32,000 nucleotides of DNA, from NCBI RefSeq assembly GCF_014280195.1, contig NZ_CP047960.1:600001-632000 (forward strand), given 5' to 3'. Positions 26,291 through 32,000 of the stretch are shown in pieces. The notes below the pieces were generated by a model, which did not search any database, was not told the DNA's origin, and was given only the letters and a program-made list of their open reading frames with translations. The stretch is from Synechococcus sp. A15-24. GTDB taxonomy: Bacteria > Cyanobacteriota > Cyanobacteriia > PCC-6307 > Cyanobiaceae. Numbering within the stretch: position 1 is the stretch's first letter; every line of letters starts with the position of its first letter. A program made the translations under genes and the position numbers.

Positions 26291-27388
26291 GTGTCCGATC
26301 CCAGGGACCTTCAGCTGAGCAGCTACGACTTTCGGCTTCCGCACGAGCGCATCGCCCAGGTACCAGCCGAGCCACGCCACAGTGCCCGTTTGTTGATGGT
26401 GCCCCCGGCGACGCAAGCCCTCGAGGCTGCCCGGCATGGGGTGGTCTGGGATCTGCTGGAGGAGTTGCAACCCGGCGACCTTCTGGTGGTGAACGACACC
26501 CGTGTGCTCAAGGCACGGTTGAAGGTGCGTCGCTCCGGTGGTGGGTTGTCGGAGCTGTTGGTGCTCGAGCCCCGCGGTGAGGGGCGTTGGCTCTGCCTGG
26601 CGCGGCCGGCGAAACGCATGCGGCCCGGCGACGTGCTGACGATTGATGGCACGTCCATCGGCCTGACGGTGTTGGCGGACGACGCAGCCAGTGGCGGGCG
26701 TTTGGTTCAGTTCCCGACGGACTGCCGTGATGCGGAGACGATCGAAACGCTGCTGAATCAGTGGGGCGAGGTTCCGCTCCCCCCTTACATCGACCGGCAT
26801 GAACCCGACGATGTCGAGCGCTATCAGACTCGCTACGCCGATCGACCGGGAGCCGTTGCGGCTCCGACGGCGGGCCTGCATTTCAGCGATGAACTGCTAG
26901 CAGGCCTCCAGCGCAAAGGAGTCGAGCTGGCCAGGATCACCCTGCATGTGGGACTGGGCACCTTCCGTCCTTTGGAGACGGATGATCTGACCAAACTGGA
27001 GCTTCACAGTGAGTGGATCGAGGTGAGTGCGGCGGTGGTGGAGGCCATTCAGCGATGTCGCGGCCGTGTGATTGCCGTGGGTACCACCAGTGTGAGGGCC
27101 CTGGAGGGTGCGGCTCAACACAACGGTGGAGTGCTCCAACCCTTCACCGGGCCCGTCAACCTTGTGATTCAACCGGGCTATCGCTTTACGGTGGTACAAG
27201 GCCTGATCACCAACTTCCACCTCCCGAAAAGCTCGCTGTTGTTGTTGGTCAGTGCGCTTATCGGACGAGAAAAATTGTTGCGGTTGTATGCCGAGGCGGT
27301 TCGAGAGCAGTATCGATTTTTTTCTTACGGAGATGCGATGTGGATTGCGCCAGAAGCAGTGCTGCTGTCGGCTCAGTTGTCGCCGTAG
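26291..27388 (+). CDS. queA: S-adenosylmethionine:tRNA ribosyltransferase-isomerase
   Basis: '[12 protein letters not shown]', 'LLVVNDTRV', 'LPPYI', 'YQTRYA...[12 protein letters not shown]', 'GTTSVRALE', '[17 protein letters not shown]' and '[10 protein letters not shown]' are QueA motifs. GTG start. Confidence 0.93.
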
Positions 27389-28020
27389 ATCGGGTCCAAC
27401 CAAGAAATATCAAGAGGGTCAATATGGAGGAAGGCCGGCTGAATCATCAATTTTTTTTCTTTAACTGCAGTGTGAATCGATTCGCTTGATTCCATCAAAG
27501 ATTTGGATGTGATAACGGCATGTTGGAGACAGGCATCGGCGTAGGAGTCGTCGTTATCGATGTCGATGCCGTGGTTGGTTAGTCCAAGCTTTATGTCGCT
27601 AACGAGCTCTGTTAATGAAGCTGAGAACATCTGTTCTTTGAGAAATGCTGCTTTTACTGCACCGCAACCTTGATGACTCATCACAAGGAGGACACGAACA
27701 TTGAGATCAAGAACGGCGTACTCTATCGATCCAGCCGCTCCAAAAGTGTTTGTATTTCCTGCATTGCGGATCACAAAGAGATCTCCGAAACCTGCATCGA
27801 AGATCACTTCAACCGGAACTCTTGAATCAGAACATGCCAGTAAAGCGACTTGTGGGTGCTGCCCCCCCGCAAGTTCGTGACGACGTGCTTGAGTTGCATG
27901 GGGGTGGTGAGAACTATTGTTCAAGAAGCGACCAAAACCGCGTTTTAATTCTTCAATGATCTCAGTCGGATCACTTAATTTTTGATCTGAATTAGAATCT
28001 ACGTAATCTGATTTGGTCAT
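27373..28020 (-). CDS. Beta-class carbonic anhydrase
   Basis: Zinc ligand motifs '[30 protein letters not shown]' (CxDxR) and '[10 protein letters not shown]' (HxxC). Low GC. The 3' end overlaps the queA 3' end by 16 nt (convergent). Confidence 0.88.
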
Positions 28021-28151: not shown

Positions 28152-29561
28152 ATGATCTCCAGTCTTGCAAATCTGTTGATTTTAGCTTTTACAAAGCCAG
28201 CTGCGGAAGTTGAGACTGCTGGTGAAATTCTTCAAAGCTTACCTGCTCTCCACTTTTCCTTTCCTGCGGCACTCCTATCGCTCTCTTTGCTGATACTGGT
28301 CAGCATCTTGTTTGAAAAACTTGGCGTCAAGCTTGGCATCCCGGGATCCATTTTCTTATTTTTTGCCGGTCTTTTTTCCCATGTTTCGGGGTTTAGTTTT
28401 GAATCTTTTCCGATAGAAGAACTTCATGTTGTAGCTTTATGCATTTTATTGTTCTTCAGCGGGCTTTCTTTTGATCGTTCGCTTTTGAGGGAAAGTAAAG
28501 TTCTAGCTAGCTCTATAAATTTGGCTTTATTCGGAACATTGCTGAGCATGTTGTTTTGGCTTTTTTATTTGTTGATAGGATTTGGTTTTTTTCAGAGTGC
28601 TTTTGGCTATTTAGAGGGAGTAAATCAAGAATTGATCAGTCTGGTAGTAGTTTCTGTAATTTTTTGCATTGCGGTACAAGATTGGAATTCTTTTATGTTT
28701 GTTTCCAAAAGAATAAAAGATTTCCGATCAACTTTGTCTAACATATTTAAAATAGAAACTGCCATATCAGCCTCAATTTCAGTGGCAATTGCTGAAATTC
28801 TTGTCCTTATTTGGCTCGCTATTCATCCTGAATATCAGTTTATGGGTAGTTCGCAGATGTTTATATCGATTTTCCAGGGAATATTGGTTGGATCAGTTGC
28901 AGGAATAGTCCTCGGTTACCTTTTGATGCTAACGATTCGTCATGTAATTACTTCCAAACCTCAGCTTGTTTTAGTTGCTGTTGCGTTCACTCTAATTGGT
29001 TACGTGGTATCTTTTTCAATCACGCACCAGGGCGGATATCTTTGTGCGCTAGTGATGGGTATTGTTACTTCTCTGGCTTACCGAAAAAGCTCAACCGATG
29101 AAGAAATAGAATTTCTCGCAGAAGAATTGGAAACTCTCAATATCGCTTCTGAAGCGATCCTCTTCTTTGCGATTGGTCTTGGACTTGAGGCCACTTCCTT
29201 TATTGCTCATCTGCCAGTGGCGATCTACGTCTGGCTTGGAATCATCATTATCAGGCCAATTACAGTCAACCTCTTTTTCAAAGGCTCTGCCGCAAAGCCG
29301 GAAGAACGTCAGCTGTTGTCGCTGTGGAGTCCGAAGGGTGCTATTTCAATGGCTTTAGCTGTTACAGCACCAGAACTGCTGGAGGGAACTTTCGGTCTCG
29401 AGATTGCTGAAATTTTTCCAGAAAATGCTTTTAACTTCTCAGCGGATATTGTTTGCGGCGCCGTATTACTTTCGATGATCATTAAATCCTTGGCGATTCC
29501 AAAAATGCATTCCCAACTTATTGGAAATCAAAAAATTGTCTCAATAAACCAAGAGGTCTGA
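28152..29561 (+). CDS. Divergent cation:proton antiporter (CPA / Na_H_Exchanger)-fold membrane protein
   Basis: About 11-13 hydrophobic segments. 'KLGVKLGIPGSIFLFFAGLF' and 'LHVVALCILLFFSGLSFD' resemble the first two conserved CPA helices (LGxPxxxGxLLAG, LLFxxGLEL), and 'WSPKGAISMALA' resembles the late (P)RG(E/L)VSxxLA motif. Low GC. Confidence 0.7.
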   Translation: MISSLANLLILAFTKPAAEVETAGEILQSLPALHFSFPAALLSLSLLILVSILFEKLGVKLGIPGSIFLFFAGLFSHVSGFSFESFPIEELHVVALCILLFFSGLSFDRSLLRESKVLASSINLALFGTLLSMLFWLFYLLIGFGFFQSAFGYLEGVNQELISLVVVSVIFCIAVQDWNSFMFVSKRIKDFRSTLSNIFKIETAISASISVAIAEILVLIWLAIHPEYQFMGSSQMFISIFQGILVGSVAGIVLGYLLMLTIRHVITSKPQLVLVAVAFTLIGYVVSFSITHQGGYLCALVMGIVTSLAYRKSSTDEEIEFLAEELETLNIASEAILFFAIGLGLEATSFIAHLPVAIYVWLGIIIIRPITVNLFFKGSAAKPEERQLLSLWSPKGAISMALAVTAPELLEGTFGLEIAEIFPENAFNFSADIVCGAVLLSMIIKSLAIPKMHSQLIGNQKIVSINQEV

Positions 29562-29564
29562 ATT

Positions 29565-30227
29565 ATGTTGAAAAGAAAGTTGACTGACCGATACCGACTC
29601 TTACGGGCTCTTTTGGTTGGAGCCGTGGTGAGTGTCCTCTTTTCGCCAGTCTTGGCAACTAAGGAAGTGATTACTGTTGCGATCACATTTTCGCTTTTAC
29701 TTGACTTTTTGATCTTGATCAAGCAGTCATGGCTAATTGGAATCAATGAAACGAGGGAAATCTTTCAGCAATTCAATGCCAAAGAGTCCTCTGTTGCTGT
29801 GAGGACTATAGCCCTTGTCTTCCTAAGTGTAGGTATCTTGAGTTTTTGTATTGCCGAACTGCATTCCAAGAATGATGTTTTGCCAAATAGCCTTCACATC
29901 TTTATAAGTTTCATTGCTCTTTTTTTAACCTGGTTTCAGCTGCACAATGGGTTTGCACTCTACTACGCGAAGAAGTACTTTGACATGAACCCGGATGTTC
30001 TTGTTGAATCCGAGGATCAAAAAGGATTTGTATTTGAAGGGGCAGAGCCTACATTTAGCGATTTTTTGTACATATCTTATTCAATAGGCCTTACCTATTC
30101 AATGACTGATTGTGGTATTAAGGATTCTTCCGTCAGGCGTGTTGTCATTATTCACTGTCTTTCATCATTTCTGTTTGCCTCAACAGTCCTCTCTATCATA
30201 TTTTCATTGGCAACTAAAGTGAGTTGA
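29565..30227 (+). CDS. DUF1345-family membrane protein
   Basis: 'WFQLHNGFALYYAKKYF...GFVFEGAEPTFSDFLYISYSIGLTYSMTDCGIKDSSVRRVVIIHCLSSFLF' matches the DUF1345 core as I recall it (FALHYA...F.G...P.Y.DFLYFSF.IG.T...SDV...R...L.H). It starts 3 nt after the transporter stop, with AAGAGG 8 nt upstream. Confidence 0.72.
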   Translation: MLKRKLTDRYRLLRALLVGAVVSVLFSPVLATKEVITVAITFSLLLDFLILIKQSWLIGINETREIFQQFNAKESSVAVRTIALVFLSVGILSFCIAELHSKNDVLPNSLHIFISFIALFLTWFQLHNGFALYYAKKYFDMNPDVLVESEDQKGFVFEGAEPTFSDFLYISYSIGLTYSMTDCGIKDSSVRRVVIIHCLSSFLFASTVLSIIFSLATKVS

Positions 30228-30257: not shown

Positions 30258-30355
30258 TTTGTGTGCATTTGCAATCATTTCGGAGGGTTGCTGTAATGAG
30301 CACTTCCCAAAAACCAGATCATCTTTAAAATTCTGCTGATGAACCAAATTTTGTC

Positions 30356-30658
30356 ATGTTTGAACTCGAGTATCTCGTTGCCTTTGGCTTGGGCGCTGGG
30401 CTCGTCGCACTTACTCCTGTTGTAGCAGCTGCTGCCGGGAAAGAAAGTTCCATCACGAAATCTGTTGCAGGTGCTGGCCGCGGCCTTACAAAACAAGGCC
30501 TTAAGGTCGGCCTCTTCGTGGGTGGCAAGGTGTCTGGACTCTTTTCTGGCGTAAAGTCTGGCATTAATGAAGTTGGTGAAAGCTTCGGCGACATCCTTGC
30601 TGAAGCCAAAGCCGACATGGCGGCACCGAAAACCAAAACCGCATCACCAAAGGCTTAA
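30356..30658 (+). CDS. Small Gly/Ala-rich membrane-associated protein with a glycine-zipper repeat (DUF5132-like)
   Basis: N-terminal hydrophobic segment 'YLVAFGLGAGLVALTPVVAAAAG'. Gly falls at residues 48, 52, 56, 57, 61, 65, 69, 74 and 78 (GxxxG periodicity). The C-terminal 'EVGESFGDILAEAKADM' resembles my recollection of the DUF5132 consensus. The antisense ORFs here are judged artefacts. Confidence 0.6.
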   Translation: MFELEYLVAFGLGAGLVALTPVVAAAAGKESSITKSVAGAGRGLTKQGLKVGLFVGGKVSGLFSGVKSGINEVGESFGDILAEAKADMAAPKTKTASPKA

Positions 30659-30661
30659 GGC

Positions 30662-31102
30662 TTGCGAGTTACAGTTAAACACCGTATTTTTGGGCGCGTA
30701 AGATTTTGTTGGCAAAAAAAATTAACATTCTATGACATGCATTTCATGGAATGTTCATTTTTTTTTGTGTTTCCCACATGTCGTTTTCGACCGGTTTCGG
30801 GCAATTCTGGTTGTGTGATCCATTTTGATGAAGCTGCTGATCATTCACTCTTTTCTCAGATCACTACGTGGATAGGTGATTTCTTAGCAATTGGCAATTG
30901 TCAGGGACCCTTGCTTCCACCGTCCAAGACGGATTTATTGATCGATAAGGCTAAAGGTTGGACAGCTCAGTCCATGATCGTAATAGCAATACTTGGCTGG
31001 ATTCTTCCAATTCTTCCAGGAACACCTTTTTTCTTACTAGCTTGGTGGCTTGGTTGGAGACCAGTATCGTCAACTGAGCTGTCAGTTGTGACTGAACCAT
31101 AG
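30662..31102 (+). CDS. HMA2/CoBaHMA-like domain fused to a truncated DUF454 (YbaN)-like membrane hairpin
   Basis: 'VKHRIFGRVRFCW' resembles the H-x-x-P-G-R-x-R-f strand of HMA_2/CoBaHMA domains, with Pro replaced by Phe. 'PVSGNSGCVIHFDE' resembles the '..tgSllI.yd' strand. The C-terminal 'ILGWILPILPGTPFFLLAWWLGWRPVSS' resembles the DUF454 start (LP.LPTTPFLLLAA..F.RSS). A TTG start lies 3 nt after the preceding stop. Confidence 0.55.
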   Translation: MRVTVKHRIFGRVRFCWQKKLTFYDMHFMECSFFFVFPTCRFRPVSGNSGCVIHFDEAADHSLFSQITTWIGDFLAIGNCQGPLLPPSKTDLLIDKAKGWTAQSMIVIAILGWILPILPGTPFFLLAWWLGWRPVSSTELSVVTEP

Positions 31103-32000
31103 AGTAAGCCATCCTAGAGCGATTTGAGCACGCTCACATTGCTTGGAAACGAACTCTGTTGGCAATGCAATACTTCGGCAATACCCATTGAATATCAAAT
31201 GTATGCTTGCGTCGACTTGTTCGATTTTTAAATTAGCCTTTGTCACACCCGGCAAGAATATTTTTGCGCAAAGTTTCTCTGTATCCCACTCCTCGATGCG
31301 ATTGCTTGCTCTCTTCTCATCATTTGTTTTGGCTTCTTCAACTAAAGCGGGAACTGCGATTGATTTGTTGATCATTATTGGTCCCTGTCGGCATTCATTC
31401 TCGAGTTCAACATTGGCTTCAGTACTTGCCTCCTCGACTATTAGAATATGAGGTATTGCACGGTGCATTCCAGCAATGCTAAGCCGATTCCTTAGCTGCG
31501 CAGGCTTGTAGTTCTTGCCGTCAAGAATTAATGTGAAATGATGATTGCTACGATCAGAGATCGTTTTTTGTAGGAGATGTAAGCGGCTTTTCCAGGCGTC
31601 GTTAAGACGCAACTGTTGTGACGAGGGCAAGCGTAGGCGTAGTATTTTTTCGACTGTCGAGAGTGTTTGGCGCGTTTTGTCCCACCAGTTGAGCAACGGC
31701 TCAAGCAATTGGTCGATCAAGGCTGGACCCTTTTGCGCCATGCCCAGGATTTTCAGTGCATGCAATGGCGTTGGCAGGATTGCGATCAAAATTGTCCCCA
31801 TTTGAGCACTCTCCAGTGCTTCTGAGAAGAAGATTAATTTGGTTAAATCTTCGATTCCAGGTATTGGAGGGAGCTCGGTTGATTGTTTAGAGGCAATGTC
31901 GAGCAGTTGCCACCACTCACTAGCGTGAGGATTGAGCTGCTTCCAAAGCTGCTTGAGAACACTGATATGGTCGAAGTATTGAATAATACAATTGTTGCTC
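31082..32000 (-). CDS. Get3/ArsA-family-like protein with a C-terminal HSP20/alpha-crystallin-like domain, 5'-partial (the frame is open to the right window edge)
   Basis: Manual translation upstream of Met-31801 shows no stop up to base 31999. 'IPGIEDLTKLIFF...ILIAILPTPLHALKIL' aligns with the ArsA 'PGxDE...yDvivvDtAPTGHTLRLL' region but is degenerate. The C-terminal 'KIFLPGVTKANLKIEQVDASIHLIFNGYCRSIALPTEF...ERAQIALGWLTLWF' matches the HSP20-like tail of cyanobacterial/plastid ArsA homologues. Confidence 0.6.
   Translation of the reverse strand, partial: SNNCIIQYFDHISVLKQLWKQLNPHASEWWQLLDIASKQSTELPPIPGIEDLTKLIFFSEALESAQMGTILIAILPTPLHALKILGMAQKGPALIDQLLEPLLNWWDKTRQTLSTVEKILRLRLPSSQQLRLNDAWKSRLHLLQKTISDRSNHHFTLILDGKNYKPAQLRNRLSIAGMHRAIPHILIVEEASTEANVELENECRQGPIMINKSIAVPALVEEAKTNDEKRASNRIEEWDTEKLCAKIFLPGVTKANLKIEQVDASIHLIFNGYCRSIALPTEFVSKQCERAQIALGWLTLWFSHN

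Follow-up and report, generated by a model that had tools for sequence, protein, structure and literature searches.

Two small adjacent genes near the end of a 32,000-nucleotide stretch of Synechococcus sp. A15-24 DNA (contig NZ_CP047960.1; the whole stretch is hereafter called the window) raise the question of whether calcyanin can be encoded as two separate polypeptides. Its gene, ccyA, is to date the sole gene that serves as a marker of intracellular amorphous Ca-carbonate (iACC) formation in cyanobacteria. An earlier note on this DNA, made from the sequence alone, had suggested such a division, taking the first product (P1) for a glycine-zipper protein and the second (P2) for a CoBaHMA-like protein, the two modules that calcyanin joins in one chain. 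The comparisons reported here point to a different answer. P1 and P2 are best explained as a coupled pair of small membrane proteins that forms a fixed part of a conserved, ATPase-centered gene cluster, a reading that we consider, as a whole, reasonably probable. The identities of the two products, their architecture, the geometry of their coupling, the synteny of the cluster, and its linkage to ccyA were observed directly. The pair is laid out as follows.

30356..30658, + strand: P1, a DUF5132-family protein of 100 amino acids (aa) with an ATG start (PF17195 match; exact NCBI match to QNJ28423.1)
30650..30664, + strand: coupling junction, two copies of AAGGCTT, with the P1 stop TAA at 30656-30658 and the P2 start TTG at 30662-30664 (read from the sequence)
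30662..30907, + strand: CoBaHMA-like N-terminal domain of P2, residues 1-82 (AlphaFold2 [AF2] model, hhalign, invariant H7/R12/R14)
30908..31102, + strand: P2 linker, with a conserved GP..PP, and C-terminal membrane anchor (partial DUF454 match, AF2 model, hydropathy)

Domain architecture of the two products

P1 matches the Pfam family DUF5132 (PF17195) with 28.1 bits against a cutoff of 25, over residues 61-90. A total of 85 homologues was found, nearly all of them picocyanobacterial and many carrying a precomputed match to the same family. In the predicted layout, a transmembrane (TM) helix spans ~6-27, a Lys/Gly-rich amphipathic segment ~32-59, and the invariant acidic helix ~72-89; AF2 places helices at 2-27, 32-59, and 76-89. 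This agrees with the layout described for the Microcystis DUF5132 members, in which an N-terminal TM segment is followed by helices and the profile falls on the C-terminal one, though the predicted local distance difference test (pLDDT) score of the model is only 64. Among 25 homologues, the invariant columns are E3, E5, G13, and P21 in the N-terminal helix; G41, R42, T45, K46, and K50 in the basic stretch; and E72-x-G74-E75-x-F77-x-D79-x-x-A82-E83-A84 in the acidic helix (E-x-G-E-S-F-x-D-x-x-A-E-A).

The glycine features that had been pointed out in P1 are all present in the sequence: 16 Gly (11, 13, 15, 28, 39, 41, 43, 48, 52, 56, 57, 61, 65, 69, 74, and 78), GxxxG chains at 48-52-56, 57-61-65-69, and 74-78, two GxGxG tracts (GLGAG at 11-15 and GAGRG at 39-43), and a hydrophobic N-terminus (~6-27, with the hydropathy maximum at residues 7-25). 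Their reading as a calcyanin-type glycine zipper did not survive comparison. Only three of the nine Gly of the run (G52, G69, and G74) are invariant among the 25 homologues, the other positions being occupied in relatives by S, D, N, A, R, K or T, and distant DUF5132 homologues carry a 7-residue deletion in this region. A GxxxG chain of at least four Gly also arises in 3.6% of shuffled P1 sequences, making it a weak signal by itself. The Gly-rich stretch includes Lys50, Lys58, and Lys67; no 19-residue window in it exceeds a mean Kyte-Doolittle value of 1.6; residues 48-69 have a mean Eisenberg hydrophobicity of 0.37, compared with 0.72 for the actual TM helix of P1; and the AF2 model of this segment falls below a pLDDT of 50. 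Alignment of the P1 family with a profile of 13 calcyanins (hhalign) returned a probability of 0.3%, and no Pfam glycine-zipper family matched P1 at E ≤ 1. The motif is present, but it is neither conserved nor placed in a membrane-spanning helix. Since its Gly are variable, its run is Lys-bearing and of low hydrophobicity, and its family does not align with calcyanins, P1 is not a glycine zipper of the calcyanin type; judged by its sequence, it is an ordinary DUF5132 member.

P2 (30662-31102, + strand) has 146 aa from a TTG start and opens with MRVTVKHRIFGRVRF. Its family comprises 70 clusters among 5.8 billion proteins and 37 representatives among 1.8 billion, with members of 142-197 aa. Invariant in 33 homologues at 28-85% identity are H7, R12, R14, G50, and the block A-x-x-G-W-x-LPILPGTPFFL-x-AW-x-LGWRP; conserved over this range of sequences, these motifs are far beyond chance.

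The likeness of the P2 opening to HMA_2/CoBaHMA domains, noted earlier by eye, is borne out by profile comparison. Residues 1-82 align with a profile of eight Pfam-positive HMA_2 domains at 90.6% probability (hhalign; E 1.3e-6, 68 columns), and H7, G11, R12, R14, and R41/R43 of P2 fall on the residues of the H-x-x-P-G-R-x-R and V-R-x-N motifs. Against the CoBaHMA N-domains of calcyanins, the probability is 94.2% (E 1.1e-7), and a reversed control gave 0.6%. Small profiles were required for these results: single-sequence hhalign was uninformative for this domain, giving 7.6% against one ATPase N-terminus and, against the L031 protein, an alignment of the hairpin only. The most distant matches to the P2 profile among 1.8 billion proteins (P0179, P0182, P0185, and P0187) are Pfam-positive HMA_2+DUF454 proteins, with HMA_2 scores of 35-51 bits. 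The AF2 model (overall pLDDT 82.5; N-domain 85-95) contains beta0 (3-9, with His7), beta1 (12-17, with Arg12 and Arg14), alpha1 (23-36), beta2 (41-44, with Arg41/43), beta3 (50-54), and alpha2 (57-77). The beta0 strand (pLDDT ~90) carries the His7 that is invariant in 33 sequences, as is typical of CoBaHMA domains; Arg41/Arg43 align with the Arg of the family V-R-x-N motif, yet are not invariant. By these sequence comparisons, the P2 N-domain is a divergent CoBaHMA/HMA_2 homologue, and one homologous to the CoBaHMA domain of calcyanin. A giant protein (P0183, 2646 aa, with 18 Secretin_N repeats) also gave a weak match to the P2 profile over nine stretches (E 4e-6), which probably reflects fold-level resemblance of small beta-alpha-beta-beta-alpha domains, not homology.

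The C-terminal anchor of P2 consists of a TM helix (~100-118), a P-G-T-P turn, and a short helix (122-132), and the chain ends 14 residues beyond the hairpin. In the AF2 model, helices 89-117 and 122-129 flank P-G-T-P. Residues 115-129 read LPILPGTPFFLLAWW, 17 residues from the C-terminus. The match to Pfam DUF454 (PF04304) scores 27.4 bits, below the cutoff of 35.1, and covers only positions 10-39 of the 115 in the profile; all 33 P2 family members match this Pfam family. The NCBIfam model PRK10527 gave 20.7 against a cutoff of 163. These data identify the P2 C-terminus, at the sequence level, as the first hairpin of DUF454, and P2 itself as something other than a YbaN orthologue. The earlier note had recognized this hairpin correctly; its view that the DUF454-like part is truncated does not hold, because the short end is conserved across the 33 homologues and hence represents the architecture of the family.

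Junction geometry, synteny, and linkage to ccyA

P2 starts 3 nt past the P1 stop, within a tandem aaggctt repeat that lies exactly at 30650-30663, as had been described; the junction reads AAGGCTT-AAGGCTT-G, and the two genes share a reading frame with TAA-GGC between them. The TTG at 30662 is the sole start codon between the in-frame P1 stop and the invariant His7 of P2. The same junction occurs unchanged in four Tara Oceans contigs. The corresponding site in Synechococcus AG-670-B23 (L002) reads AAGGCTTGA, with a TTGA stop/start overlap, and for this reason the window junction looks like a 7-nt tandem duplication. Across 18 loci, the junctions are mostly GTGA (L004, L006, L010), ATGA (L007), or TTGA (L002) overlaps or gaps of 0-25 nt; two are seemingly longer, with ambiguous starts. 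Non-ATG starts are the rule for P2 in relatives. Given a tight or overlapping junction in most of the 18 loci, the co-translation that had been thought probable still appears so: co-expression of P1 and P2 is almost certain, and their translational coupling is probable. The same-frame layout is lineage-specific, the frames differing in L001 and L002; a P1-P2 fusion by stop-codon read-through is therefore ruled out as a conserved feature.

The wider locus was compared in 24 picocyanobacterial loci (Synechococcus, Cyanobium, Vulcanococcus, and 'Prochlorococcaceae' metagenome-assembled genomes [MAGs]). A DUF5132 gene (DUF5132a, the position of P1) lies directly upstream of P2 in about 22 of these, so that homologous adjacent pairs do occur in other cyanobacteria. 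The cluster order is DUF1345, beta-carbonic anhydrase, DUF5132a, P2, a convergent Get3d-like gene, a second DUF5132 gene (DUF5132b), and a P-type ATPase. The Get3d-like gene, DUF5132b, and the ATPase are each present in 21 of the 24 loci; the beta-carbonic anhydrase adjoins the cluster in 20 loci, and the DUF1345 gene is found near it in 17 loci. The window contains the following neighbors of the pair.

27373..28020, - strand: beta-carbonic anhydrase (Pfam Pro_CA, 107 bits), at the left edge of a low-GC island, with GC 0.45 against 0.62 in the adjacent queA
28152..29561, + strand: NhaP-type cation:proton antiporter (Pfam Na_H_Exchanger, 62.8 bits)
29565..30227, + strand: DUF1345 membrane protein (PF07077, 105 bits), a conserved cluster member
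31082..32000, - strand: 3' part of the Get3d-like gene, cut by the window end (frame open to 31999; 362 aa in near-identical contigs)

The Get3d-like open reading frame (ORF) had been listed as 239 aa (31082-31801); it is in fact open to the window end, representing the 3' ~305 codons, and its 3' end overlaps that of P2 by 21 nt. The product combines an ArsA/Get3-like body with a C-terminal alpha-crystallin (HSP20-like) domain, supported by Pfam ArsA_HSP20 (24.9-48.5 bits) and, in the L002 orthologue, ArsA_ATPase (29.5 bits). While phmmer with the single protein found nothing among PDB sequences, a profile of orthologues, which was needed here, matched Nostoc Get3d (NosGet3d, 3IGF) at E 5.8e-11 and Arabidopsis Get3d (AtGet3d, 8ELF) at 1e-4. 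No Walker A motif (G....GK[ST]) was present in three Get3d-like orthologues, where the position reads L-V-S-A-D in place of GKGGVGKT.

Beyond the window, the locus was read from contigs with an identical P1 (e.g., L035 6557-12809), which carry a second coupled set: DUF5132b (132 aa), followed by a P1B-family ATPase (844 aa; TIGR01525, 449 bits) whose N-terminus, ILHASSRRLRF, is CoBaHMA-like. The ATPase is followed by a 174-aa protein (g174, a P2 paralogue) that has a CoBaHMA-like start, an I-P-F-A-P-G hairpin, and an ATGA overlap with the pump gene, then by a 696-aa CoBaHMA-like degenerate ATPase and, on the other strand, a GDT1/UPF0016 divalent cation/proton antiporter. In relatives, the N-terminus of the ATPase is recognized by the HMA_2 profile; Pfam HMA_2 gave no match in the other CoBaHMA-like proteins of the island. 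Outside the picocyanobacteria (Chroococcidiopsis, Phormidium, and a MAG), L027, L029, L031, and L034 each have a DUF454-hairpin protein next to an HMA_2-ATPase, and in L029 and L034 a DUF5132 gene stands alongside them as well.

A divergently transcribed ORF of ~310-330 aa lies directly upstream of DUF5132a in 14 loci, all freshwater or brackish picocyanobacterial genomes and MAGs (e.g., L003 1046-1975(-), L010 2662-3591(-), L011 2683-3603(-), and 11 further loci). It starts with L-x-x-x-H-x-x-P-x-R-x-R-L, a CoBaHMA N-terminus, and continues with three long Gly zippers with central G-P: RQxGGNxIGAxxGQVxxGG...LxGPxxAL, then RKLGxRxGEEAGxSTGxxxGAALAGPAGAxAG, and a third with conserved W and E. 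The second repeat weakly matches TIGR03789 (PdsO); Pfam and NCBIfam returned nothing else on these ORFs. In their length, in the CoBaHMA N-terminus, in having three long zippers with a central G-P, and in the PdsO match, the upstream ORFs agree with the published features of calcyanin (PMC8890360), and because of this agreement they are identified as ccyA. The sequences thus support an association of the P1-P2 pair with calcyanin. When calcyanin served as the query, a homology search retrieved close relatives only, owing to low-complexity word limits, and neither reached Synechococcus RS9917 nor linked the cluster to a strain with microscopy-confirmed iACC. Among the papers searched, none was found that describes ccyA in this conserved cluster.

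Proposed role of the pair and its rivals

The CoBaHMA domain family was reportedly described by Gaschignard et al. in 2024, and CoBaHMA domains have been proposed as regulators that bind anionic lipids. With CoBaHMA/HMA_2 (PF19991), P2 has in common the beta0 strand and its conserved His, conserved Arg residues in both the beta1 and the beta2 strand, and the lack of CxxC; such domains occur on membrane proteins, P-type ATPases and DUF454-type anchors among them. P2 differs in lying below Pfam detection and in carrying Phe, in A15-24, at the Pro of H-x-x-P-G-R-x-R. The closest described arrangement surrounds ccyA in Microcystis aeruginosa PCC 7806, where two DUF5132 genes, a 'CoBaHMA_DUF454-Cter' gene, another CoBaHMA protein, and a Ca2+/H+ exchanger (cax) occur, the DUF454 and DUF5132 genes being co-expressed with ccyA and the NhaP, UPF0016, and Ca-ATPase genes elsewhere in the genome also correlated (Bruley et al., bioRxiv 10.1101/2024.07.07.602159). 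Both sets combine a CoBaHMA N-domain plus DUF454-like hairpin with DUF5132 proteins having an N-terminal TM segment and a long C-terminal helix; both contain two DUF5132 copies and are linked to ccyA (in relatives of A15-24) and to cation/proton transporters. For the Microcystis protein, the authors report a Pfam HMA_2 match, whereas P2 has none and is recognized only by profile-profile methods. In A15-24, moreover, the pair is directly coupled across a 3-nt gap, the middle gene is Get3d-like instead of a second CoBaHMA protein, and the cluster has a CoBaHMA-P1B-like ATPase and a beta-carbonic anhydrase but no ccyA at the locus. Because the same pairing near ccyA is known in Microcystis, the A15-24 pair is a more divergent case of a described kind.

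The C-terminal hairpin of P2 corresponds to the L-P-x-x-P-G-T-P-F helix-turn-helix of the first hairpin in E. coli YbaN/DUF454 (PF04304). However, YbaN is a 125-aa polytopic inner-membrane protein that spans the whole 115-position profile, whereas the P2 hairpin is a C-terminal anchor behind a soluble domain. The cluster protein downstream resembles Get3d (Nostoc All4481, 3IGF/8EGK; Arabidopsis At1g26090, 8ELF) in its Get3/ArsA-like body, alpha-crystallin domain, and cyanobacterial distribution; it differs in lacking a P-loop, and its convincing match to solved Get3d is limited to the alpha-crystallin domain.

The topology, binding partners, and ion specificity in the proposed mechanism are predicted from these features. 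P1 would span the membrane once, with its C-terminal Gly/Lys-rich and acidic helices in the cytoplasm, an orientation suggested because acidic residues precede the TM helix and Lys/Arg follow it. P2 would lie on the same cytoplasmic face, tethered by its tail-anchor-like, YbaN/DUF454-type C-terminal hairpin. The two would be made in a fixed ratio, P1 acting as a putative membrane partner of P2, and a putative basic face of P2 (His7, Arg12, Arg14, and Arg43) could dock on an anionic surface, either lipids or an acidic partner. P2 may thus serve as a membrane-tethered regulatory or scaffolding subunit of the transport machinery of the cluster, which would handle cations (likely Ca2+), protons, and inorganic carbon and would be built around the atypical P1B-like P-type ATPase with its own CoBaHMA domain.

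Several results weigh against this account. Pfam HMA_2 (PF19991, cutoff 30 bits) does not match P2 and reaches only three of the 33 family members, at E~0.17. The fold that the earlier note had anticipated for the N-domain was recovered as to its extra strand, beta0, but no beta4 strand was predicted in the AF2 model, so that a complete ferredoxin-like core is not demonstrated; a Foldseek search of P2 against the PDB gave no significant match, with a best E of 0.087 and no HMA domain in the top 50. The topology of P1 rests on hydropathy and charge because its model is poor, and physical contact between P1 and P2 is putative. The ATPase, as read from its sequence, has F-D-L in place of C-P-C. 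Ca2+/carbonate handling would follow from the neighboring genes and from ccyA linkage in other genomes only; a ccyA-like ORF was found neither in the window nor in L001, L002, and the 13-15 kb contigs from the A15-24 lineage.

The split-calcyanin explanation, in which a zipper module (P1) and a CoBaHMA module (P2) would rebuild calcyanin from two chains and so replace ccyA, draws on several of the same observations: the P2 domain is homologous to the CoBaHMA domain of calcyanin, notably of W-type calcyanins (Benzerara et al., 2022, PMC8890360), ccyA is missing at the A15-24 locus and present there in relatives, and P1 in the window carries GxxxG chains. The Microcystis authors suggested that the adjacent CoBaHMA-DUF454 protein might complement a calcyanin lacking CoBaHMA (bioRxiv 10.1101/2024.07.07.602159). 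Calcyanin, however, has three repeats (~50 aa) of ~12 apolar GxxxG units with a central Gly-Pro (PMC8890360). P1 offers a single run of ~6 units with three Lys and no G-P, and P2 has none, so that the defining (GlyZip)3 is absent from both; the P1 run is short, charged, variable, and, by the profile comparison above, non-homologous. Because 14 relatives carry a complete, CoBaHMA-type ccyA side by side with the pair, P1-P2 is neither a fission product of calcyanin nor a substitute for it, and we consider the proposal highly unlikely. Also hard to sustain is a classical metallochaperone role, in which P2 would hand Cu, Zn or Cd to the P1B ATPase and P1 would be an unrelated small membrane protein. 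The heavy-metal P1B score of the neighboring ATPase (TIGR01525, 449 bits) and the kinship of P2 with the HMA superfamily speak for it. But P2 has no CxxC and no Cys column conserved among its homologues, its invariant residues being His and Arg; in the ATPase, F-D-L stands at the site of the metal-binding C-P-C of P1B pumps; and CoBaHMA domains are defined by the loss of metal-binding cysteines (PMC8890360). This role is therefore very unlikely.

A reading that takes P2 and the paralogous g174 for tail-anchored clients of the Get3d-like protein, with P1 as receptor or insertion partner and the pair as cargo and not as transport regulators, is compatible with the coupled-pair explanation instead of exclusive of it, though in itself we regard it as unlikely. 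The sole hydrophobic segment of P2 ends 14-28 residues from the C-terminus, the convergent Get3d-like neighbor is co-conserved in 21 of the 24 loci, and in vitro binding of tail-anchored proteins is known for Get3d proteins (PMC10248533). However, the Get3d-like protein has no Walker A motif, which makes canonical ATP-driven targeting by it improbable, its strong match to solved Get3d is confined to the alpha-crystallin domain, and nothing links P1 to insertion. It could also be supposed that the pair is an artefact, the antisense ORFs (30275-30496 and 30325-30636) being the real products or P2 a decayed full-length YbaN. A 103-aa antisense ORF does exist, GC-rich relatives often have one open antisense frame, the DUF454 match of P2 is partial, and gene callers skipped P2 on four contigs. 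Codon-position counts cannot separate sense from antisense here, since third positions coincide, and stops were instead counted in the different loci. In all 18 loci, the sense ORF is intact, and it matches a Pfam family, whereas the antisense frames have stops in the window, L035, L012, L017, and others; for P2, 33 homologues with identities as low as 28% show conservation of the full length, the start region, and the end, and both domains contain invariant residues. This conservation refutes the artefact explanation, including the opposite-strand products that the earlier note had allowed for, and leaves it hardly any credence.

A broader extension of the coupled-pair explanation would make P1-P2 half of a 'CoBaHMA machine' that is self-contained and mobile by horizontal transfer. 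It may comprise a CPC-less P1B-like pump and four CoBaHMA-bearing proteins, together with two DUF5132 proteins and a Get3d-like chaperone that has no P-loop. Speculatively, the invariant acidic helix of DUF5132 would be the anionic ligand of the CoBaHMA basic patch, which would be why each DUF5132 gene precedes a CoBaHMA gene, and the Get3d-like protein might insert or chaperone the tail-anchor-like CoBaHMA proteins. Such a machine may be the core of intracellular Ca-carbonate handling, with calcyanin as an optional add-on; if so, marine Synechococcus with a ccyA-less island would still sequester Ca or carbonate. Taken jointly, with all of its parts, this extension appears rather improbable.

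Calcyanin partner candidates had so far been named from a single Microcystis genome. The present data add two small proteins that accompany ccyA in more than 12 picocyanobacterial lineages; a wider conserved cluster of carbonic anhydrase, DUF1345, Get3d-like protein, and CoBaHMA-fused P1B-like pump; and a ccyA-less low-GC island version of it in a cultured marine Synechococcus. Together, these provide a testable gene set and a natural 'minus-calcyanin' comparison that could separate the role of calcyanin from that of the remaining cluster. P2 also exemplifies a conserved protein that is under-called by domain databases and often missed by gene callers. The value of these findings lies mainly in the lead they offer for work on intracellular carbonate biomineralization.

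The A15-24 island and minor observations

Exact protein matches (QNJ28418-21) correspond to the E2, QueA, carbonic anhydrase, and antiporter genes of Synechococcus sp. A15-24. From the carbonic anhydrase onward, gene-wise GC is 0.40-0.53, compared with 0.62-0.65 in queA, E2, and the gene past the island; this contrast with the flanks delimits the A15-24 cluster as an ~11 kb low-GC island. The island has acquired two transport genes, one for an NhaP-type antiporter and one for a GDT1/UPF0016 transporter, and has no ccyA at the locus, the antiporter sitting where the 14 relatives carry ccyA. The antiporter has matches in L001 and L002 only, plus gene calls in L035-38, and so belongs only to the marine low-GC version of the cluster. 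In near-identical Tara contigs, the island is bordered by queA and a PALP-domain gene.

On four near-identical metagenome contigs, the gene calls pass over P2. A 15-billion-protein collection does not contain its exact product, although A15-24 neighbors are present there; in the deposited A15-24 genome, P2 probably lacks an annotation or has been given a wrong start. The picocyanobacterial cluster or an identical P1 also appears in MAGs labeled 'uncultured proteobacterium', 'uncultured Klebsiella sp.', 'Rhodopirellula sp.', and 'Verrucomicrobiales bacterium' (L001, L021, and L022; proteins P0084 and P0247); these odd labels likely reflect mis-binning or contamination.

A promoter and terminator scan of the window performed no better than on shuffled sequence. 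A sequence with the shape of a bidirectional terminator, made up of an A8 run, an AT-rich inverted repeat of 12 bp, and a T9 run, lies within P2 codons 19-35 (30716-30765); the number of terminator-shaped sites is not above the shuffled expectation, and the protein region encoded there is variable among relatives. Elsewhere in the window, GC is 0.62-0.67 over the middle 22 kb (4000-26000), with a sharp switch from the first ~4000 nucleotides, where GC is 0.43-0.51 and glycosyltransferase and sugar-nucleotide genes are found.

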